Source of the DNA: a virus
Lineage: Duplodnaviria > Heunggongvirae > Uroviricota > Caudoviricetes
Direction: 5' to 3' (one strand)
Length of the DNA: 43,831 nt
IMG/VR virus record: IMGVR_UViG_2711768019_000013
Part shown: in pieces, positions 19,573 through 42,279 of the stretch
How the letters are laid out: each line of letters opens with the position of its first letter
Numbering within the stretch: the stretch's first letter is position 1
The notes under the pieces: generated by a model
What the model saw: only the letters and a program-made list of their open reading frames with translations
What the model was told of the DNA's origin: nothing
Database searches by the model: none
Made by a program: the position numbers and the translations under genes

Positions 19573-19824
19573 TTAGTCCTGATTTTTATCCACCCTGAGT
19601 AGTTCGCGCAGAGCAAAGGCATCCCCTTTTCTGGCAAGCTTAAACAATGCCGCTCGTAACTCGGCTTCACCTTTCGCTCTGCCCTTACGGATGGCCGCAT
19701 AAAAATCTGTCATTGCTTCCCGATTTTCTTTCAGTCGGTTCAGATCAACATCCAGAACGTCAGCGATTTGTTGTGCAGTCATCCGGCACGCTGCCAGAGA
19801 CTCGACTTTCGAATACGGAATCAT
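19573..19824 (-). CDS. Small HTH-like protein upstream of terminase (possible start at ATG 19782, MTAQQIADVLDV)
   Basis: 83-aa ORF; the track start overlaps the upstream gene by 65 nt. Confidence 0.35.
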   Translation of the reverse strand: MIPYSKVESLAACRMTAQQIADVLDVDLNRLKENREAMTDFYAAIRKGRAKGEAELRAALFKLARKGDAFALRELLRVDKNQD

Positions 19825-20692
19825 TTGTCACCCCCATTGATATGCAGGGTGTCTTCTTCCTGTATTTTTCGTGAAGGATTTTTACTGCAGCGTTGTTCCA
19901 GGTGACCTGATGGTGAATGCGTTTATGACTGGCACCCATAAGTGAGATTTTTACGCACGACGGCGCATACATGACGGAGTAAAAACTTTTAACGTAGGTT
20001 CCGGAATCCAGATACAGCTCGGTCATTCCGCCGCTGTTTTTCTGCGTCTGTTTCTGCCCTAACTGGACAGCACCGATCGTCATAAACAATTCACCACAGC
20101 GACCGAGATTCGTGTACGTATTCACATCCTCGTTAATGCGCCCCATGAATGAGAACGGTCGATCAACCGAACAGATAAAGCTGTTCATTGCCTTGCGTTT
20201 CACCCACGAAGCATGGCCGCCATTGTCACCAAGAAAATCCCCGCCCTGCGACATAGCGATGGAAAGAGCAGGTATTGATTCGTAGTACGCAAGCATTTCA
20301 GAAAGGATCTCATCCAGTTTCCTTATCGGGAAATAGGCCTGGTCATAGTTGCGATCCACCCGAAACTGGAACTCGTGATAATCATCATCGAGCTGAATGA
20401 AGTATTTACACCCGACCAGTTTTGCCTGGTCGAAACAGGCATTACGGGCGTAAAAAATTGAGCGGCGGTCACTAAAATTATCGGCTTCGTCAAAACGACT
20501 AGCAATATCGGCTTTGGAAAATACCAGCACCTGTTCACCAAATTCAGCCATGTACTGATGCCGTGTCTTATCTTCATCATCAACAACGATAAAAATTTTC
20601 CCGGTATAGCCAGCACGACGCAACGTCCGGTAAGTCAGAACTTTGTCCGGTCGCCCGTGAGTCAGAATAAAGGCGCAAAAATCATCACGCAT
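19760..20692 (-). CDS. GT-A fold (family 2-like) glycosyltransferase-like protein
   Basis: CAFILTHGRPDKV...KIFIVVDDEDK and later KYFIQLDDDY match the GT2 N-terminal strand, DD and DxD motifs as I remember them; start ATG 20692 overlaps the ParB-like stop (ATGCGTGA) with GGAGGAGG upstream. Confidence 0.5.
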   Translation of the reverse strand: MRDDFCAFILTHGRPDKVLTYRTLRRAGYTGKIFIVVDDEDKTRHQYMAEFGEQVLVFSKADIASRFDEADNFSDRRSIFYARNACFDQAKLVGCKYFIQLDDDYHEFQFRVDRNYDQAYFPIRKLDEILSEMLAYYESIPALSIAMSQGGDFLGDNGGHASWVKRKAMNSFICSVDRPFSFMGRINEDVNTYTNLGRCGELFMTIGAVQLGQKQTQKNSGGMTELYLDSGTYVKSFYSVMYAPSCVKISLMGASHKRIHHQVTWNNAAVKILHEKYRKKTPCISMGVTNDSVFESRVSGSVPDDCTTNR

Positions 20693-21473
20693 ATTCCTCC
20701 TCCCCGCCATGCATGATCTCCACCATGCGCTGCGTCATTCGGACAAATCCATTTTCAATAGCCTGCTGATAATCAATGATCACCAGCGCCGACTCCTCGA
20801 AAAGGCACTGAATTTCAGCGGGGGCATGAGCGTAATAGTCCGCAATTCTGCTGAAATTAAACACCGTGTGACGTTCTGCTGCACACAGGAGGAATTTCTC
20901 AATATCAGGATCAAGGGACGCCGAACGTATCCGGCTGATCAGCTCCTGAGTTTTCGTATCGTCGTACAGTTCACTGATATCCGGTTTACCGCCTGACGGC
21001 TCATAAACAGGCGTATCAATTTTCGTCGTATACGGCTCCTCCTCATTTCCTGTACCGGGCAAAACATCCGTCAACAGTTCATCAATTTCTGCCGGGATGA
21101 AGCCTGTCAGGGAGACATCAAAATCAGCATTGATTAGGTCCGACAGCTCCATCCGCAACAGATCTTCATCCCAGCCAGCATTCATCGGCAGGCGATTATC
21201 TGCCAGGCGGTACGCCTTTTTCTGCTCATCCGTCAGGCCAGACAGAACAATGACCGGAACAGAATCCATTTTGAGCATTTCAGCCGCCATAACACGACCG
21301 TGACCCGCAATAATTTCGCCCTTTTCGTCAATCAGCACCGGATTAGTCCAGCCGAATTGCTTAATACTTTCTACCAGTTGTGCCACCTGCTCAGTACTGT
21401 GCGTCCTGGCGTTGTGCGCATACGGTGACAATTCTTGTAATGGGCGATAGACTATCTTTAATTTCTCGCTCAT
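20685..21473 (-). CDS. ParB-like nuclease domain protein
   Basis: N-terminal ...NPVLIDEKGEIIAGHGRVMAAEML... matches the ParB/sulfiredoxin N-domain pattern; acidic C-terminus. Confidence 0.65.
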   Translation of the reverse strand: MSEKLKIVYRPLQELSPYAHNARTHSTEQVAQLVESIKQFGWTNPVLIDEKGEIIAGHGRVMAAEMLKMDSVPVIVLSGLTDEQKKAYRLADNRLPMNAGWDEDLLRMELSDLINADFDVSLTGFIPAEIDELLTDVLPGTGNEEEPYTTKIDTPVYEPSGGKPDISELYDDTKTQELISRIRSASLDPDIEKFLLCAAERHTVFNFSRIADYYAHAPAEIQCLFEESALVIIDYQQAIENGFVRMTQRMVEIMHGGEEEYA

Positions 21474-23205: not shown

Positions 23206-23670
23206 TTACTTTAAACACTGCTCGGTTATGTATTGCTGAGCACCTTCAAGTTGGGCCTGCATCATTACCAGTCGTTCCCGGAGGGTGAAATAATCCCGTT
23301 CAGCGGTGTCTGCCAGTCGGGGGGAGGCTGCATTATCCACGCCGGAGGCGGTGGTGGCTTCACGCACTGACTGACAGACTGCTTTGATGTGCAACCGACG
23401 ACGACCAGCGGCAACATCATCACGCAGAGCATCATTTTCAGCTTTCGCATCAGCTAACTCCTTCGTGTATTTTGCATCGAGCGCAGCAACATCACGCTGA
23501 CGCATCTGCATGTCAGTAATTGCCGCGTTCGCCAGCTTCAGTTCTCTGGCATTTTTGTCGCGCTGGGCTTTGTAGGTAATGGCGTTATCACGGTAATGAT
23601 TAACAGCCCATGACAGGCAGACGATGATGCAGATAACCAGAGCGGAGATAATCGCGGTTACTCTGTTCAT
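23206..23670 (-). CDS. Rz: i-spanin Rz
   Basis: [23 protein letters not shown]... N-terminal transmembrane segment then coiled coil; ATG overlaps the endolysin stop (ATGA). Confidence 0.8.
23265..23450 (-). CDS. Rz1: o-spanin Rz1 (lipoprotein) embedded in Rz
   Basis: [23 protein letters not shown]... lipobox VVGC, proline-rich ([18 protein letters not shown]); encoded in the +1 frame inside Rz. Confidence 0.8.
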
Positions 23671-24164
23671 TGCTGACCCCACAAACAGATTTCACGCTCA
23701 ATCTCACGACGAGTCATGAGACCTTTCCATTGCTTACCGCCAGCATATGTCCAGCGACGTAGCTGATCACATGCGCCTTTGATATCGCCCTGGTTTATTT
23801 TGCGAAGAAGCGTCGATGTTCTGAAATTGCCAGCGCCCACGTTGTAAACGAACGAGTAAAGAGCGCCGCGCGTTGTTTCCGGTATATCGACTTTGATGTA
23901 CGGGTTAATTTGTCTGGCGACAGTGGCAAGGTCTTTATTCAAGAGTGTTTTGCATTCTGCTTTGGTATACGTTTTACCGAGCATGATGTCTTTTCCTGTA
24001 TGCCCGTGACATACAGTCCATACACCAACAATATCTTTGTATGGTATGTAGCTGACACCTTCCAGACCATCGTTACCACTTGGGCCAGTGATTAACACTG
24101 ATGCTATAGCAATTGCTCCGCCACCAATAGCAGCAGCAACGACTTTTCGTAATGATGGAGGCAT
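23667..24164 (-). CDS. SAR endolysin (phage 21 R-like lysozyme)
   Basis: N-terminal signal-anchor-release segment [18 protein letters not shown] then a lysozyme domain (…[13 protein letters not shown]…); near-identical to my memory of R21. Confidence 0.85.
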
Positions 24165-24379
24165 TATTCACCTCTCGCAGCCTTGCGCTTATCTTCTTTA
24201 ATCTTGAAATAAAGGTTTGTCAGGTACGTCAGCAGGCCAAATACCAGACTACCCAGCACACCGATTGCAGCCCACTGTGACGGAGTTACTCTATCGAGCA
24301 ACTGTAAAAACCAGTAGCCAGCACTGCCTGCGGAGGTGCCGTAGGCAATGCCTGTTGAAATTTTGTCCATGGATTTCAT
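24164..24379 (-). CDS. Class II pinholin (S21-like) with dual-start motif MKSMDK
   Basis: [71 protein letters not shown]; two transmembrane segments; starts at M1 (24379) and M4 (24370); stop overlaps the endolysin ATG. Confidence 0.85.
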
Positions 24380-24630
24380 AGCCTCACCTCCGCACGGAAC
24401 GGATGGCATAGTTATTATGTGTAGGCTTTCAGACACATCAATCAGAGCCTTAATTGATATATATGCTGGAGACGATGCAATATAAAAAGCTCGCCGTAGC
24501 GAGCTAATAAAATGTATTTCTCTGATATTATGTTTATTTGTATTAGCTCAGACTTGACATCACAGGTTTCGTATATAGAACATCATCAAATCTGTCAGTT
24601 TGCTATGAATGAGATATAGTAATTGAAGAG

Positions 24631-25026
24631 CTAACCTCGCATGTCAAAGCCAGATTTCTGAAAATCTCTGTAGACTTCCGGATTGTTGAAGGCCGGAAAT
24701 TTGGCTTTATGAGCTGCGGACTTTATCGCTTCGCAATAGGCTTTATCACCGTTACTGGTAGATATTTTTAACGCCGTGCCATCCTGAGAGAATTCCATAT
24801 GCAACCTGCATTTTTTCCCTTTCCAGTTATGCGGCTCATCAAGTTTGGCATTAATTGCAGCTCTGATTCCCCGCGCTTGCGCCCCCCATTCATCCTGATC
24901 ATCCCAGCGTCCTGAACTGCAACTACCTGTAGCAGTAGTTTTGTGGCAATCTGAAGGGTGTAAAGGTGTGCATCCCGCAACAAAACCGACCCAAAAAGTC
25001 AACATAACGATTTTCTTTAATCCCAC
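24631..25026 (-). CDS. Lipoprotein with divergent TolA domain III-like C-terminus (GTG start)
   Basis: Signal peptide MGLKKIVMLTFWVGFVAGC (lipobox VAGC); C-terminal WKGKKCRLHMEFSQDGTALKISTSNGDKAYCEAIKSAAHKAKFPAFNNPEVYRDFQKSGFDMRG parallels the neighbouring paralogue; GAGGAG 6 nt before the GTG. Confidence 0.6.
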   Translation of the reverse strand: MGLKKIVMLTFWVGFVAGCTPLHPSDCHKTTATGSCSSGRWDDQDEWGAQARGIRAAINAKLDEPHNWKGKKCRLHMEFSQDGTALKISTSNGDKAYCEAIKSAAHKAKFPAFNNPEVYRDFQKSGFDMRG

Positions 25027-25176
25027 TTCTTGCTCCTCAATCCATTAAAATCTCAGCAATAGTAGTTGTTACGTCCGCCACTGGCTCAGAGCTGACTATC
25101 CGCTAAATTTAGCTCAGTGCCGTAGCTGTGTCAGAACAAACCTAAGCCGAAACCGTTTATTACAAAACAATAAATA

Positions 25177-25605
25177 TCAGGGTTTAAAATCCAGCACCCC
25201 ATTTTGAAATACTTTATATACTTCCGGCGAAGGGGGGGCAGGTATATCAGCATTCTTTATCGCATTCATCGCTTCACGACATAAATCGAGGTCTCCACTT
25301 TCTCTTTTAACCTCCAGTAGAAGGCCATTCGGGGCCATATGCATTCTCAGTGTACACTCTTTTCCTGAATACTTACTCGCATCCCCGAACTGTTTTTCGA
25401 TGGCGCTCTTGATTTGATGGGCATACAGACGGATATCCTCACTAACATCAGAAGTACGTTCAGATGAACTCACATACTGTGTCTCTATTGCTTTATCGGA
25501 GTAATATGATGTACGGTCATGATAATTTGTCGATACAGCATCAGTGCACCCGATAATAATCCCACTAATAATCAACGTAAGAATTGATGCGCTACGAAAA
25601 CCCAT
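25177..25605 (-). CDS. Lipoprotein with TolA domain III-like C-terminus
   Basis: Signal peptide with lipobox IIGC; YAHQIKSAIEKQFGDASKYSGKECTLRMHMAPNGLLLEVKRESGDLDLCREAMNAIKNADIPAPPSPEVYKVFQNGVLDFKP closely matches the E. coli TolA C-terminus as I remember it (…AGQIKSAIESKFYDASSYAGKTCTLRIKLAPDGMLLDIKPEGGDPALCQAALAAAKLAKIPKPPSQAVYEVFKNAPLDFKP). Confidence 0.7.
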   Translation of the reverse strand: MGFRSASILTLIISGIIIGCTDAVSTNYHDRTSYYSDKAIETQYVSSSERTSDVSEDIRLYAHQIKSAIEKQFGDASKYSGKECTLRMHMAPNGLLLEVKRESGDLDLCREAMNAIKNADIPAPPSPEVYKVFQNGVLDFKP

Positions 25606-26194
25606 TTTTCCTCACATATGTCATATAGTAAAGGATTATATATACCGTTGTTTTGGACGCTCAAACAGCGAATCAGATCAAATAAAACGCACATTTGTTA
25701 ACATTTACACAAAGTCTGCGTGGGATATTCTGAAAGAATATCCATAATGTGGAGAGAATCTATTGAAGTGCATGGTGCCGGGTGCCTCCCGGTGAACAAA
25801 ATGTTCGTGATACCTGTCGGCGACAGAAAAGGTTAATGGTATCACCCCACCGCACAGGGGGATTCACCATGCAGGAGTTTTCTTAGCAAACTCACTGCGC
25901 GCCCGGCAACTCCCAACCACATAAAATGCGGAGTTTGTGGCATTTATGCATATAACTCGCAGGAATTATCTTAAAAAACTGATGTCGATCCGGATTAAAA
26001 AGAAGCAGGTCATCATCAGATGACTGGAAAAAAGGAAAACAAAAAATACTCATCATACAGTTTTGATTGCAGGGATGAGCCTGCTATGCACAATATGCAG
26101 AATATAAGCAAGATAAAAATATGCAGGCATATTATTTCGGATCTTGTTATTAACACAACCTTTTTAATAATCATTTGGCATACAATAAACCAGC

Positions 26195-26222
26195 CCAAAA
26201 AGAACCGCCTAAACAGGCGGTT
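26195..26222 (-). terminator. Rho-independent terminator on the minus strand between Q and the lipoprotein genes
   Basis: Plus-strand cccaaaaag then aaccgcc-taaaca-ggcggtt; on the minus strand the stem is followed by CTTTTTGGG. Confidence 0.6.
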
Positions 26223-26649: not shown

Positions 26650-27192
26650 TCAAGCCATTTTCTCAGCAAATGATTCACGCATGGGAATATATAGGGCATA
26701 CTCAGCAACAGCTAACCAATTAGCAATCCGTTTTTCGCATGTGCTAAAACACCACTCTGGGTGTGCATCATTTAGCAATTCAGCCATTTTGCGCTTAGTC
26801 ATCCCCCGCCCTTCATAGCGTTGCCGGAGAATGCAAATCAATCCTGGATGCTCTGCCAGCACCTCACTTATGACTCGATCAATACATAACGCCTCTGCAT
26901 CAGTACAATGCGCCAGCCAGCTCTTTTGCTTGCCGTTGATCATCTCTCGCAAAAACGCTTCCAGCTCAGCTTTCTCTATTCCCGCTTTTTTCATTCTGCG
27001 CAGGGCTTCATTAATGGCTGTTTTCGTCAGTTTTTTGGATGCCAACAACTGATTGAACATATTCCCTGACCTGCCACCGCCAATATACGACCAGCGCCCC
27101 CACATACGTAGTTTTCCCTGAATCCAGACACTTTCCAGCGTGGTGAGGCGAAGGTGTTCTCCGCTTTTTCCTGTATTCGTTGGGTAAATCAT
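26650..27192 (-). CDS. Late-gene antitermination protein Q-like
   Basis: 180 aa immediately upstream of terminators and the lysis cassette; RMWGRW motif resembles the phage Q-family ERWGAW motif as I recall it; ATGA overlap with the upstream gene. Confidence 0.55.
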   Translation of the reverse strand: MIYPTNTGKSGEHLRLTTLESVWIQGKLRMWGRWSYIGGGRSGNMFNQLLASKKLTKTAINEALRRMKKAGIEKAELEAFLREMINGKQKSWLAHCTDAEALCIDRVISEVLAEHPGLICILRQRYEGRGMTKRKMAELLNDAHPEWCFSTCEKRIANWLAVAEYALYIPMRESFAEKMA

Positions 27193-29850: not shown

Positions 29851-30852
29851 TTAGTAATCTGCGTGTTTCGCACTTTTCAGAAATGCTTTCATATTTTCAT
29901 TAGGTCGCTCAATTTCGAAGTTACTTCCATATAACTCTTGTAATTTTGGCCATAACTTACTTAATAACCCTCTCCTGCGATAAAATGGATGTATCCAAAC
30001 GGTAGATAGGTACGGAGAATTTGCATTTGAATTGTTTATTGTGACCAGCCCAACTAAACATTGTCGATAACCACTATTATCCATTGATTGTATTTCTTCG
30101 ACGAATGGATACGCGATTACATCAGTCCAACCATGATCGGTTGTATCCCATTGCATTCCGTCATGACATTCCTTCGACTGATAGCGGCGTAAAGCTACAC
30201 ACGCGAGCTTTTGCCAATCTGGAGAATTAATTGTGATCTCTTCATCGTATGACGCGCCTATTGGAGCGGGTATTGGTCTGATTAATCCAGCATGGCATTC
30301 ATCATAGAACTTCATGTTTCCCTCAGAAACGTTGTGTACGTTGGGTTGCTCCATGTGTGCGCCATTCAAAAATAGCTCTGATAGTAGTGTATCTACACTG
30401 TAATCTTTATTGATTATTGTCGGCTTAGAGTTTTTCTTATTAAGGCCGCGAGTAACGATTTTTTGATCAATGTTAACAACATGGAATAATCCGTCGGGGA
30501 GGCTAGCGAACCACGATGGGGCATCGGACCAGAATAGCATGCCTTTTGTACTTCTTAAGAGTTTAATTAAGTTAATACAAGCTTCTTCACTAGTCTTGCC
30601 GTTGATGCGAAGTATGTTAGGACTAAAGTAATATTCATCCATATCAGGGAATGCAGCTTCGCAAAACTCCTGTACATAATTTAGCACCTGGATTCTACAG
30701 AGATCATCATAGCTGGTAATAACTAAGGGGGTATCTTCATTACTATTATGATTATCAATAATGCAATCTATAGCGAGACTTACTGCTTTGCGTATCACTT
30801 CAGTTGAATCTAACGACTCTAAAAATTTTGTCTTTCGTGTGCGAATATCCAT
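29851..30852 (-). CDS. Hypothetical protein (333 aa), second gene of an AT-rich two-gene operon; C-terminal region weakly GNAT acetyltransferase-like
   Basis: Start ATG 30852 lies 15 nt after the ORF A stop; C-terminal ...CLVGLVTINNSNANSPYLSTVWIHPFYRRRGLLSKLWPKL... resembles GNAT motif A (compare RimI FQRRGLG); N-terminal 200 aa unrecognised; low GC. Confidence 0.55.
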   Translation of the reverse strand: MDIRTRKTKFLESLDSTEVIRKAVSLAIDCIIDNHNSNEDTPLVITSYDDLCRIQVLNYVQEFCEAAFPDMDEYYFSPNILRINGKTSEEACINLIKLLRSTKGMLFWSDAPSWFASLPDGLFHVVNIDQKIVTRGLNKKNSKPTIINKDYSVDTLLSELFLNGAHMEQPNVHNVSEGNMKFYDECHAGLIRPIPAPIGASYDEEITINSPDWQKLACVALRRYQSKECHDGMQWDTTDHGWTDVIAYPFVEEIQSMDNSGYRQCLVGLVTINNSNANSPYLSTVWIHPFYRRRGLLSKLWPKLQELYGSNFEIERPNENMKAFLKSAKHADY

Positions 30853-30867
30853 GTATGACCTGCGCTA

Positions 30868-31890
30868 TTAAAATTCATGAATGAACGGTTTGTCATCTGG
30901 TTGCAAAATGGTGGTTTTATTCGTTGCTACATTTAAACTGTTGTAGAGCATAATTGCCAGGTTCGATGCATTTTCAATCAGCGTTTCAAGATCCTGGTCT
31001 GTAATCACTACGAGGTTCCCTTCTTTATCCTTTCCACCACGATGCACTAAGTGATTTCGATTGAGGGTTGCCAATTCAATAGCTTCTATCGGACAGTCTT
31101 TTTGTACTTTTATATCGAATGTAGCTTCATAGCGGTCGATTACCTTTTTAGTGCTATGCCAGCTTGCACTGATCAAGTGTTCCTTGATTGACCTGATTAG
31201 CTCTCCCCTAATTTTCTCGATGGGTTCACCCTTGAAAGGCAACGCAGCAATATCTTTGCTTACTTTAAATTCAGTCTTACCTTTTTCTATACAATTGGCT
31301 ATGTAGACATCATCTTTCTCTATAGAATTAATGAATAGCTCAACATAAAGCGTTTCCAAAGCTGTAATAACATTCGTGTAGAGCAAACTAAGCAAGTGGT
31401 TTTTTTGCTGTTGTTCAGTTTTATCTTTTGCAAGTTTTTTTATTTTATCGATATTATCAATGAATTTTAAATACGGATTACCGGAAGACGTTACAGCGTC
31501 GTAGATATCATCATCGTACCAATCATCTATATTATTTGAGTTTCCAGACCAGTCAAAACATTGTGTTTGTAATTCATCTACTAATTCCTCAATATACTCA
31601 GATTTAACATATTGACCGAAGATGGATTGTAGTTCTTCGCTCGCATCATACGGCCCGCCATATATGTAAGCATAGCCACCTTCTCTACTTTCATACGGAC
31701 AAGCATTTGCCGGATCTTCAAAGTTTTCAAAGAACCAGTTTTTCATTACTTCGAGTTGATCTTTTTTGCTTATGTATTTTAAAGATTTTAGTGGAACTTT
31801 CTTTCCATTAACCTCGAAAACAATTTTCACGATGTAACGCTCCCTTGTATCAATTGCGCAACTATTATACCACAGCGAAATACAGGGCAT
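30868..31890 (-). CDS. Hypothetical protein (340 aa), first gene of the AT-rich two-gene operon; C-terminal R-x4-H (HEPN-like) motif
   Basis: Strong AAGGAGG Shine-Dalgarno 6 nt before ATG 31890 (MPCISLWYNSC...); C-terminal ...ATLNRNHLVHRGG... fits the Rx4-6H pattern; no family recognised by eye; low GC. Confidence 0.55.
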   Translation of the reverse strand: MPCISLWYNSCAIDTRERYIVKIVFEVNGKKVPLKSLKYISKKDQLEVMKNWFFENFEDPANACPYESREGGYAYIYGGPYDASEELQSIFGQYVKSEYIEELVDELQTQCFDWSGNSNNIDDWYDDDIYDAVTSSGNPYLKFIDNIDKIKKLAKDKTEQQQKNHLLSLLYTNVITALETLYVELFINSIEKDDVYIANCIEKGKTEFKVSKDIAALPFKGEPIEKIRGELIRSIKEHLISASWHSTKKVIDRYEATFDIKVQKDCPIEAIELATLNRNHLVHRGGKDKEGNLVVITDQDLETLIENASNLAIMLYNSLNVATNKTTILQPDDKPFIHEF

Positions 31891-31928
31891 AACCTGCCTC
31901 CTTAAACTAACATACCATGAGCCAGCAA

Positions 31929-31954
31929 TGTCCGCTATTGGCACAAAGCGGACA
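31929..31954. promoter_or_regulatory. Perfect 8-10-8 inverted repeat (TGTCCGCT-N10-AGCGGACA) upstream of ORF A; candidate operator
   Basis: Plus-strand tgtccgct attggcacaa agcggaca at 31929-31954, about 40 nt upstream of the ORF A start on the minus strand; not followed by a U-run, so not a terminator. Confidence 0.4.
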
Positions 31955-32028
31955 ACCACGCTAGCTCTCCCCTGTGCCAGAAAAATGTCAATTTACATAT
32001 GAACTAATGCTCTTTGATCTAGTAACGT

Positions 32029-42090: not shown

Positions 42091-42279
42091 ATGTATAAAA
42101 TTACCGCCACTATTGAAAAGGAAGGTGGCACTCCTACTAACTGGACAAGATATTCAAAATCTAAACTAACGAAATCAGAATGCGAAAAAATGCTCTCAGG
42201 TAAAAAAGAAGCAGGCGTTTCCAGAGAGCAGAAAGTAAAACTGATAAATTTTAATTGCGAGAAACTTCAGTCCTCGTGA
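42091..42279 (+). CDS. YdaC-like small protein (62 aa from MYKITATIEKEGG)
   Basis: Track ORF 42019-42279; the internal ATG 42091 overlaps the ralR reading-frame end; an alternative ATG at 42079 (MEVFMYKIT) is possible. Confidence 0.5.
   Translation: MYKITATIEKEGGTPTNWTRYSKSKLTKSECEKMLSGKKEAGVSREQKVKLINFNCEKLQSS

Follow-up and report, generated by a model that had tools for sequence, protein, structure and literature searches.

TolA domain III-like lipoproteins at the Q-to-holin locus of a Rac-type E. coli prophage: possible decoys of the Tol import hub

Two genes, here called P1 and P2, lie between a Q-like gene and the holin gene of a Rac-type E. coli prophage, in a stretch of 43,831 nucleotides (the window). 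Both are predicted to encode outer-membrane lipoproteins that end in a TolA domain III, and both appear to be separately acquired cargo of a locus equivalent to that of stx in Shiga toxin phages. It is possible, with a likelihood that falls a little short of even, that P1 and P2 are tethered to the outer membrane as decoys of the Tol import hub.

P1 and P2 are both on the minus strand, which corrects an earlier description. Read along this strand, the order is a DUF1133 (Q-like) gene, approximately 1 kb of non-coding sequence, P1, P2, a terminator, an S21-type holin gene, a lysozyme gene and Rz/Rz1. The features are as follows.

26650..27192, minus strand: DUF1133 protein, putative Q-type antiterminator (PF06576, 356 bits)
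26203..26222, minus strand: terminator-like hairpin 3' of the Q-like gene (terminator scan; -14.6 kcal/mol, z -1.4)
25716..25902, minus strand: STnc100-family prophage sRNA, between the Q-like gene and P1 (Rfam RF02076)
25635..25664, minus strand: candidate sigma-70-like promoter, TTGAGC-18-TATAAT (10/12 consensus match)
25177..25605, minus strand: P1, 142-aa predicted outer-membrane lipoprotein with TolA domain III (ORF, GAGGA Shine-Dalgarno)
25546..25605, minus strand: P1 signal peptide and lipobox, aa 1-20, IIIG|C, Thr at +2 (PS51257-type rule)
25180..25443, minus strand: P1 TolA-III domain, aa 55-142 (ungapped alignment to 1S62/3QDP/1TOL)
24631..25026, minus strand: P2, 131-aa predicted outer-membrane lipoprotein with diverged TolA domain III (ORF, GAGGAG-N6-GTG)
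24970..25026, minus strand: P2 signal peptide and lipobox, aa 1-19, FVAG|C, Thr at +2 (PS51257-type rule)
24634..24891, minus strand: P2 TolA-III domain, aa 46-131 (AF2 pLDDT above 96)
24488..24505, minus strand: intrinsic-terminator-like hairpin in the P2-holin gap (terminator scan; -13.8 kcal/mol, z -2.5)
24164..24436, minus strand: phage 21 S-type holin, first lysis gene (PF04971, 119.9 bits)
23667..24164, minus strand: phage lysozyme (PF00959, 154.8 bits)

The upstream gene had been called Q in the earlier note. It encodes a DUF1133 protein, and its score of 26.1 bits against the Phage_antitermQ profile barely reaches the cutoff of 26. The sRNA is matched at 86.6 bits, against a gathering score of 47 for RF02076 (STnc100). 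The candidate promoter, approximately 30 nt 5' of P1, was found by consensus scan only, and alignment of the upstream regions of P1 and its variants revealed no conservation of it. The hairpin in the P2-holin gap, AGCUCGC-UACG-GCGAGCU followed by UUUUUAU, is convincing as a terminator with a U-run 3' of P2.

The claim that both genes have lipoprotein signal peptides is borne out. Cys20 of P1, in the lipobox TLIISGIIIGC, and Cys19 of P2, in LTFWVGFVAGC, both satisfy the PROSITE PS51257-type rule, which asks for a positive n-region, an uncharged h-region and a Cys at position 15-35, with the lipobox pattern [LIVMFWSTAG](2)-[LIVMFYSTAGCQ]-[AGS]-C. Thr is at +2 in both proteins and Asp is absent from this position; for P1 the E. 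coli Lol rule thereby predicts sorting to the outer membrane. The start codon of P2 is a GTG that is 6 nt 3' of its Shine-Dalgarno sequence, GAGGAG; the RefSeq entry for P2 (WP_001348108.1) starts at an internal ATG and is 7 aa shorter.

The TolA domain III-like C-termini, the second of them more diverged, had also been noted earlier, with alignment and modelling proposed as a check, and both points stand. The Pfam TolA C-terminal family PF06519, with a gathering threshold of 25 bits, matches P1 at 82.6 bits (E 2.4e-23) and P2 at 54.6 bits (E 1.3e-14). Both proteins align without gaps to the solved E. coli TolAIII chains in the PDB, with E-values of 5e-28 for P1 and 5e-9 for P2. P1 is identical to residues 334-421 of E. 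coli TolA at 52 of 88 positions (59%), and P2 to residues 340-421 at 27 of 82. The TolA cysteines C363 and C388 correspond to C84 and C109 in P1 and to C73 and C98 in P2. An AlphaFold model of P1 from its single sequence is poor (pLDDT 56), and the TolAIII fold of P1 is inferred from its ungapped identity to the solved chains. The AlphaFold (AF2) model of P2 has a pLDDT above 96 throughout the domain, with helices at 46-61, 95-107 and 116-122 and strands at 72-79, 85-93 and 124-130, in keeping with the α/β fold of TolAIII, in which a three-stranded sheet packs on helices. Its top PDB match in Foldseek is the TolAIII structure 3QDP, with a target TM-score of 0.92 and an rmsd of 1.1 Å.

Strong conservation is seen among the P2 orthologues, for which dN/dS is 0.04-0.11 at dS 0.5-1.1. 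Conservation extends to the linker of the P2 family, where a Cys-x9-Cys loop is invariant and the motif RWDDQDEW is kept. The P2 linker sequence SSGRWDDQDEWG may resemble the colicin TolB box, a similarity that is given zero weight here. The dN/dS of the P1 domain is 0.24. Against E. coli tolA dS is saturated at 2.5, therefore capture from tolA was not recent.

RefSeq lists P1 as WP_000506936.1, 'cell envelope integrity protein TolA', a name that overstates what P1 is. At 142 aa and 131 aa, against 421 aa for TolA, P1 and P2 are without the TolA inner-membrane anchor, the long helical domain II and the tolQ-tolR-tolA-tolB-pal operon context. Both miss the cutoff of 213 for full-length TolA in NF007065 (P1 107.8 bits, P2 53.7 bits), their matches being confined to approximately the last 95 of the 387 profile positions, and TIGR02794 is passed by P1 only (75.6 against 59.45), over approximately 98 C-terminal positions. 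Both belong at full length to PHROG 5772 (E 1.6e-62 for P1 and 6.7e-65 for P2), which has the PHROGs category 'unknown function' and the RefSeq name 'cell envelope integrity TolA C-terminal domain-containing protein'. The domain is already flagged by RefSeq and Pfam and is not new as an annotation. The aligned TolA-III homologues all stop at, or within a few residues of, the TolA C-terminus and keep both cysteines, and the consensus C-terminus of the short family is LDF, as in TolA. Lipoprotein architecture predominates among the short homologues: a strict lipobox rule is passed by 44 of 69 representatives (100-170 aa), and none has Asp at +2. PADLOC-DB gave no match to P1, P2 or a Klebsiella plasmid homologue at E-values up to 0.1, and no TolA-III-like match was found among the BFVD predicted viral structures. 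A full-text literature search found no work on the function of short TolA proteins encoded by phages or plasmids. The literature, the PHROGs category and the PADLOC result agree with the earlier statement that no function has been described.

P1 is present in 888 of 5,426 complete genomes (16%), exclusively in E. coli and Shigella prophages, and P2 occurs in 23% of the complete genomes of E. coli. The share of sequenced E. coli with at least one such TolA-III gene is roughly between a sixth and a quarter. The P1-P2 cassette is at least 99% identical across about 780 complete genomes. In the GenBank phage collection mEp460_ev081 is the sole record with P1 and P2 genes, and scans of viral sequences with each single protein gave about 125 near-identical contigs each. 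The Rac prophage of K-12 has lost the whole P1-P2 block, and this absence may be why the genes have been overlooked. In searches with whole P1 and with its domain, the matches listed were all near-identical proteins of E. coli, and no donor of the P1 domain emerged among them.

The block from 24163 to 25893 is common to the window and mEp460_ev081, which has a different Q. In other prophages, variants of P1 stand alone between a tRNA-Ile/tRNA-Arg pair and a block of SASA esterase, DUF1378, DUF826 and holin genes. This interval is the stx site of Stx2 phages. The homology between P2 and its plasmid copies spans the ORF and only about 30 nt on either side. The genes are thus a discrete insertion in the Q-to-lysis interval, present in some relatives and absent from others, as in lambdoid morons. 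This supports the proposal that the locus is equivalent to that of stx, with P1 and P2 between the Q-like gene and holin and P1 variants in the stx2 slot, and it answers the suggestion that related prophages be checked for conservation. The description of P1 and P2 as tandem paralogues holds as far as distant homology is concerned; local duplication does not. With 29% identity and different distributions, they are distant homologues that arrived separately, rather than the products of a recent tandem duplication.

P2 is a member of a mobile family whose genes are on IncF and IncK plasmids and, in other Enterobacterales, form single-gene islets. Its orthologues on pO157-type IncF and IncK conjugative plasmids have 88% identity; the pili of plasmids of these types are receptors for TolA-dependent filamentous phages. 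The chromosomal islets are at a different site in each genus, and in Enterobacter, Citrobacter and Klebsiella the P2-type genes are stable in ordinary chromosomal neighbourhoods. One copy in Serratia adjoins GmrSD and HEPN genes. The lipoprotein-TolA-III architecture recurs on a cloacin-type bacteriocin plasmid as well as on the conjugative plasmids. In 10-kb Klebsiella ColRNAI plasmids, a TolA-III lipoprotein gene overlaps a short TonB_C gene with a signal peptide, and this pair adjoins a cloacin-type bacteriocin gene and its immunity gene. In Raoultella, a P2-type gene is two genes from a TonB_C lipoprotein gene. A short TolA-III lipoprotein and a short TonB C-terminal protein are found side by side in two unrelated places, of which one is a bacteriocin plasmid. 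The K and L proteins of plasmid CloDF13 were considered as the TolA/TonB-like pair of its Klebsiella relatives and ruled out, there being no tblastn match; they are a different cargo cassette at a neighbouring site.

The residues through which TolA domain III binds its partners differ in their conservation between the two proteins. The β3 edge of TolA is the shared binding site of g3p-N1, ColN and TolB, and the binding of all three is abolished by D418P and K420P (PMC4339652). In P1 the β3 sequence LDFKP is unchanged from TolA L417/D418/F419/K420/P421. Of nine ColA-contact residues (contacts from PMC3365938), four are identical and a further three are conservative in P1. In P2 only two of the nine are retained, none of the three cation-π lysines at the ColA site is left, and β3 is FDMRG rather than LDFKP. 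In the TolA/TonB C-terminal fold, partners are bound by backbone β-augmentation (PMC7391070), such that the specificity of the fold can drift. P1 looks competent as a decoy because both known TolA binding edges are kept. With the ColA contacts lost and β3 changed in P2, P1 is by far the better candidate for a decoy.

To cross the periplasm, group A colicins must engage TolA domain III (A and N directly, others via TolB), and so must g3p, the tip protein of pilus-specific filamentous phages. As decoys, P1 and P2 would have been acquired separately as moron cargo at the head of the late operon, just 5' of holin. After predicted export and lipidation, their products would be sorted to the outer membrane and sit on its inner face, with a free TolA domain III reaching into the periplasm on a linker of about 25-35 residues. 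Being lipid-anchored and without the N-terminal anchor of TolA, such a domain hung from the outer membrane cannot be energised. Lacking a link to the TolQR motor, it would capture import ligands unproductively at their exit from the outer membrane. Tolerance of the lysogen to TolA-dependent colicins and phages would follow, through exclusion at import. Late-promoter expression of P1, expected to be very high, would lead to competition with TolA for the N-terminus of TolB. P2 probably works in the same general mode on another set of ligands, having altered edges and belonging to a wider conserved mobile family. What the analysis shows directly is the genes with their lipoprotein signals, fold, conserved residues, position and distribution; outer-membrane localisation, expression in the lysogen, ligand binding and any protection phenotype are inferred. 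The edges retained in P1, the recurrence on plasmids and the pairing with TonB_C proteins offer circumstantial support for a decoy or Tol-Pal function.

There are points against the decoy. Genes at the head of the late operon are expected to be expressed most strongly just before lysis, too late for exclusion to bring much benefit. PADLOC-DB offers no match in its favour, and the sole sign of expression in the lysogen is the consensus promoter match that the P1 variants do not conserve. One paper links the ciprofloxacin-induced EDL933_2012 to 'TolA', but this is a tail fiber protein in the paper's own table and is therefore unusable as evidence of expression. Binding of TolB by a decoy might impose a cost on the host, and the stable chromosomal P2-type genes could have a housekeeping role in the envelope. 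It is conceivable, although unlikely, that P1 and P2 instead help lysis or release. Made in bulk before holin, they would titrate the TolB N-terminus off TolA and switch off Tol-Pal; the outer membrane would be looser, with hyper-vesiculation and faster or completed lysis, and tolerance to colicins and phages would be a side effect. P1 and P2 are first after the late leader and directly 5' of holin, lysozyme and Rz/Rz1, and the P1 variants occupy the stx slot, which is expressed mainly upon induction. P1 also keeps the β3 residues for TolB binding, and mutants of the TolA β3 edge have a tol phenotype with periplasmic leakage (PMC4339652). However, the prophage is already fully equipped with holin, lysozyme and Rz/Rz1, P2 and holin have a terminator between them, and TolB binding by TolA is weak, with a Kd of about 40 µM against about 1 µM for ColN (PMC4339652). 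Lysis would also leave unexplained the plasmid and chromosomal copies that are far from lysis genes, and the pairing with a TonB C-terminal protein.

For P2 especially, the TolA-III fold may be a scaffold for some other ligand, with a role in the envelope or in defence outside Tol-dependent import. Candidates for this ligand include a component of tailed phages, a different toxin, or some other protein of the periplasm or outer membrane. Although both known binding edges have diverged in P2, purifying selection on it is very strong in all the genera compared, including on its linker (the Cys-x9-Cys loop and RWDDQDEW), its single-gene islets are at genus-specific chromosomal sites, and β-augmentation would let its specificity drift (PMC7391070). 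This has a modest chance of being correct, given that P1 is clearly TolA-like at its interaction edges, that the consensus C-terminus of the short family is still LDF, and that the TonB_C and bacteriocin-operon neighbours point to import hubs specifically. That P1 and P2 are non-functional fragments of a host tolA, carried passively in a decaying prophage, is very improbable. Rac is often defective, the K-12 Rac is without the entire block, and some protein-search clusters are truncated copies. However, the ORFs here are intact, with good ribosome-binding sites and with lipoprotein signals that tolA does not have, dN/dS is far below 1 and the saturated dS speaks against a recent capture. Added to this, the cassette is nearly invariant across about 780 complete genomes and is also in mEp460_ev081.

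The decoy reading may extend beyond this prophage. Tentatively, and with somewhat less confidence than for P1 and P2 themselves, mobile elements of the Enterobacterales may spread a hitherto unrecognised class of 'import-hub mimics', free C-terminal domains of TolA (at some loci TonB) that intercept bacteriocins and filamentous phages. Tethered to the outer membrane or periplasmic, they would provide a broad tolerance that is independent of immunity proteins. The carriers would be lambdoid prophages, bacteriocin plasmids and conjugative plasmids of the IncF and IncI complexes. In bacteriocins the target would be the translocation domain, and in pilus-specific filamentous phages the tip protein. 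If P1 and P2 are decoys, they represent a natural, horizontally spread tolerance to Tol-dependent colicins and filamentous phages that leaves the essential Tol-Pal system unmutated. This would bear on competition in the gut and on antimicrobial uses of colicins, klebicins and phages, and could explain how conjugative plasmids bear the cost of pili to which filamentous phages are drawn. The exclusion mechanisms described so far mostly mask surface receptors, and mimicry of a translocation hub in the periplasm would be added to them. If instead Tol-Pal is weakened at lysis, this would be a new type of lysis accessory in the Shiga toxin slot.

Several known systems can be compared with P1 and P2. 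They share with domain III of E. coli TolA (1S62, 3QDP, 1TOL, 3QDR, 2X9A) the fold, both cysteines and the C-terminal β3 end, although TolA has a transmembrane anchor, helical domain II and its operon where P1 and P2 have a lipoprotein signal and a short linker. The P1 variants are in the same slot as stx and other morons of the lambdoid Q-to-lysis locus; the cassette here is followed by a probable terminator of its own, and its cargo is envelope lipoproteins rather than a secreted toxin. Levengood-Freyermuth et al. reportedly described, in J Bacteriol in 1993, colicin tolerance and leakiness upon overproduction of periplasmic TolAIII. When pIII-N1 is made in the periplasm, it sequesters TolA and generates resistance to colicin A and phage (PMC10424213). 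In these engineered cases, as proposed here, a free copy of one partner titrates the other, and the cells show tolerance to colicins and Ff phages along with tol-like phenotypes in the engineered cases, although periplasmic TolAIII and g3p-N1 are soluble, overexpressed laboratory constructs, whereas P1 and P2 are natural, encoded by mobile elements and lipid-anchored. Llp of T5, Cor of φ80 and N15 and TraT of F are also small outer-membrane lipoproteins of mobile elements that block the entry of phages or colicins. No search revealed a sequence relationship between P1 or P2 and lipoproteins of the Llp/Cor type, nor is one of fold known. Llp, Cor and TraT bind or mask receptors in the outer membrane (FhuA, OmpA), whereas P1 and P2 are proposed to mimic a hub in the periplasm.

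Two short genes of this Rac-type lambdoid prophage, which is from a natural E. coli strain, encode predicted lipoproteins that end in domain III of TolA (TolA-III): P1 and the more diverged P2. In the best-matching genomes the prophage sits between the sit genes and ttcA, and carries intR, recET, kilR and trkG. Its features, beginning with the P1-P2 locus in minus-strand order, are listed here.

Features of the locus and of the rest of the prophage
Start of the order, minus: DUF1367, YbcO-like, then DUF1133 protein (the Q-like gene; Phage_antitermQ 26.1 bits, cutoff 26)
About 1 kb downstream of the DUF1133 gene, minus: no long ORFs; terminator-like hairpins at 26222-26203 and 26024-26009
25902-25716, minus: STnc100 prophage sRNA, directly upstream of P1 (RF02076, 86.6 bits, gathering score 47)
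25664-25635, minus: sigma-70-like site, 10/12 consensus match
25177-25605, minus: P1 ORF, 142 aa, ATG start with GAGGA ahead
150 nt, minus: spacer from P1 to P2
24631-25026, minus: P2 ORF, 131 aa, GTG start with a GAGGAG Shine-Dalgarno 6 nt upstream
24505-24488, minus: clean terminator hairpin and U-run, downstream of P2
After the terminator, minus: S21-type holin, lysozyme and Rz/Rz1
23667-24436, minus: the phage 21 type lysis cassette, S21-family holin and lysozyme (family match; lysozyme N-terminus resembles a signal-anchor-release segment)
Within 19760-21473, minus: TET-associated glycosyltransferase beside trkG (PF20691, E 4e-34)
Within 19760-21473, minus: ParB_N-domain protein beside trkG (PADLOC type II methyltransferase model, E 1.5e-38)
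29851-31959, minus: two adjoining genes, 333 and 363 aa (sub-threshold matches only: GNAT 19.9 bits; HEPN/RES N-terminal domain 1, 22.2 bits)
42097-42275, minus: RalA antitoxin sRNA of the RalR/RalA type I toxin-antitoxin, expected for Rac (RF02694, 225 bits)

The glycosyltransferase and the ParB_N protein could be a DNA-modification pair of the prophage, and the holin and lysozyme would be a pinholin/SAR-endolysin pair if the lysozyme N-terminus is a signal-anchor-release segment. A PADLOC search returned no match for the 333 and 363 aa genes; reference genome LD39-1 has three hypothetical genes in this region. In the Rac prophage of K-12 MG1655 (NC_000913.3 1422752-1425239), ydaW directly abuts the rzpR pseudogene, followed by rzoR and trkG, and everything between DUF1367 and the lysozyme, both included, is absent, and with it the Q-like gene, P1, P2 and the holin. 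This loss plausibly accounts for the absence of experimental work on P1 and P2.

Both ORFs that the earlier note had placed at 24631-25605 are present there, with the lipoprotein signals it described. A lipoprotein rule of the PROSITE type is satisfied at both N-termini; the lipobox cysteine (Cys20 of P1, Cys19 of P2) is followed in each by Thr, residue +2. Under the E. coli Lol rule, Thr at +2 directs sorting to the outer membrane, and by this rule P1 and P2 are predicted outer-membrane lipoproteins. The RefSeq start of P2, an internal ATG at 25005, is 7 codons shorter (124 aa) and drops the positively charged n-region; the GTG at 25026 restores the Lys-Lys of the signal peptide.

The TolA-III likeness claimed in that note holds for both proteins. 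Pfam PF06519 (TolA C-terminal) scores 82.6 bits for P1 and 54.6 bits for P2 (cutoff 25), and a PDB search returned the E. coli TolA-III chains 1S62, 3QDP, 2X9A and 1TOL without gaps (P1 E ~5e-28, P2 ~5e-9), 2X9A being the complex of TolA with the If1 g3p. Identity to E. coli TolA is 52/88 over 334-421 for P1 and 27/82 over 340-421 for P2. The single-sequence model of P1 is poor. For P2, an alignment of 61 sequences gave a model with pLDDT >96 from residue 50 to residue 131; the PDB entry that matches it best is TolA-III 3QDP (target TM-score 0.92, rmsd 1.1 Å), followed by further TolA structures and then TonB C-terminal domains. Among the predicted viral structures of BFVD, no comparable fold was found. 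The domain similarity itself is not new: RefSeq and Pfam record it, as does PHROGs, where both proteins match PHROG 5772, a family of 'unknown function'. P1 and P2 are not TolA proper. They lack its membrane anchor, domain II and tol operon context, fall below the NF007065 equivalog cutoff, and match the NCBIfam TolA models just over their final ~95 positions. RefSeq labels P1 'tolA / cell envelope integrity protein TolA', an over-call, with only the last ~95 residues matching.

Two binding edges of TolA-III are known from published structures and mutants. One, β3 (L417, D418, K420), serves g3p-N1 as well as colicin N and the N-terminus of TolB (PMC4339652; PMC7391070), and D418P or K420P abolishes all three interactions (PMC4339652). 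Colicin A contacts β2 and its neighbours (K368, L375-P380, L392, K396; PMC3365938). In P1, β3 is LDFKP, unchanged from TolA, and of 9 colicin A contacts 4 are identical and 3 conservative. In P2, β3 is FDMRG, 2/9 contacts are kept and the three cation-π lysines are all gone. Tol-dependent entry is known to be blocked by free periplasmic domains that resemble TolA or bind it. Overproduced periplasmic TolA-III reportedly caused colicin tolerance and leakiness (Levengood-Freyermuth, 1993). Periplasmic pIII-N1 sequesters TolA and gives resistance to colicin A and phage (PMC10424213).

P1 and P2 share 29% identity with saturated synonymous sites, and are not a local duplication. Among the matches listed, the P1 family is confined to E. 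coli and Shigella; of 5,426 complete genomes 888 carry it, practically always on the chromosome. Its domain has a dN/dS of 0.24, and its dS against E. coli tolA is saturated (2.5), so that P1 was not captured recently from the host gene. P2 is in 1,269 of the 5,426 genomes (825 chromosomal and 525 plasmid copies). An orthologue with 88% identity is found on pO157-type IncF plasmids near psiB/psiA/hok, and on IncK plasmids it directly follows the relaxase gene. The family extends to 370 protein clusters from Citrobacter, Enterobacter, Serratia, Klebsiella and Raoultella, where the gene is a single-gene islet at a chromosomal site that differs from genus to genus. In Serratia marcescens (L008 6001-8736) it lies between nrdDG and a GmrSD_N/HEPN pair, a defence-island-like setting.

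P2 orthologues have a dN/dS of 0.04-0.11 (dS 0.5-1.1), and the linker is conserved too. Residues 20-47 (24886-24969, minus), CHKTTATGSCSSGRWDDQDEW, form a Cys-x9-Cys loop and then Trp-acidic-Trp, and between E. coli and Serratia they hardly vary; the orthologues share the loop, which is invariant, and an RWDDQDEW motif. This 'linker' is not a free spacer, and its Trp-acidic part may resemble the colicin TolB box. An exhaustive HMMER search with P2 gave 130 cluster representatives, most of them between 100 and 170 aa long; among the full-length short ones, 44/69 pass a strict lipobox rule and 0/69 have Asp at +2, which makes 'outer-membrane lipoprotein plus TolA-III' a widespread architecture.

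Block 24163-25893, which spans the holin gene, both lipoprotein genes and most of STnc100, recurs at 97% identity in phage mEp460_ev081, where it comes after another Q gene; the shared block stops at 25893, near the STnc100 5' end. The STnc100 family is linked to Stx-type phages (bioRxiv 10.64898/2026.05.13.724894). At its 3' end the copy in the window has a hairpin that is missing the U-run seen in the family consensus, and transcripts might therefore continue into P1-P2. P1 variants (66-79% identity) in other prophages of E. coli are solitary, after tRNA-Ile/tRNA-Arg and before a SASA esterase-DUF1378-DUF826-holin block. In the gene order of Stx2 phages this slot is where stx is carried, and the earlier label of an stx-equivalent moron locus is therefore correct.

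A 10,060-bp Klebsiella pneumoniae ColRNAI plasmid (NZ_CP107420.1; L003 2883-3616) has a gene for a 123-aa TolA-III lipoprotein (lipobox LTAC) with a 4-nt overlap with a 121-aa signal-peptide-bearing TonB_C gene. On such 10-kb plasmids the pair adjoins a cloacin-type bacteriocin (561 aa in NZ_CP107420.1) and its immunity gene. The neighbouring site of CloDF13 carries unrelated K/L genes, not this pair. The Raoultella terrigena chromosome (L022 6001-7475) provides a second, independent TolA-III/TonB-C neighbourhood: a P2-type lipoprotein gene, a DUF2251 gene, then a 111-aa TonB_C gene with lipobox LAVC. The two domains have one trait in common, being periplasmic hooks exploited by bacteriocins and phages. 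Conjugative plasmids of the kind carrying P2 orthologues encode pili used by TolA-dependent filamentous phages.

The kept edges of P1, the precedents for periplasmic blocking and the associations with TonB, bacteriocins and plasmids tentatively favour a role in which P1 and P2 would be tethered decoys of TolA-III in the lysogen periplasm, intercepting Tol-dependent entry. This suits P1 well and P2 loosely. It is possible, if rather doubtful, that the domain, mainly in P2, is a scaffold with another ligand, as the divergent edges, extreme conservation and stable chromosomal copies of P2 would suggest.

Two features, the place of the genes at the start of the late operon and the intact TolB-binding edge of P1, would also suit a lysis or vesiculation helper that switches off Tol-Pal shortly before lysis. 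This is unlikely, however, given that the spanin set is already complete, a terminator precedes the holin, many copies elsewhere have no lysis genes nearby, and there is the pairing with TonB C-terminal proteins. Intact signals and strong purifying selection bring a non-functional remnant close to exclusion.

No functional description of short mobile-element TolA-III lipoproteins was found in the literature, in agreement with the earlier note, and PADLOC has no model matching P1 or P2. If tethered decoys are indeed what they are, they would represent a new variant of the exclusion lipoproteins of mobile elements, acting through mimicry of a periplasmic import hub rather than the masking of a surface receptor.
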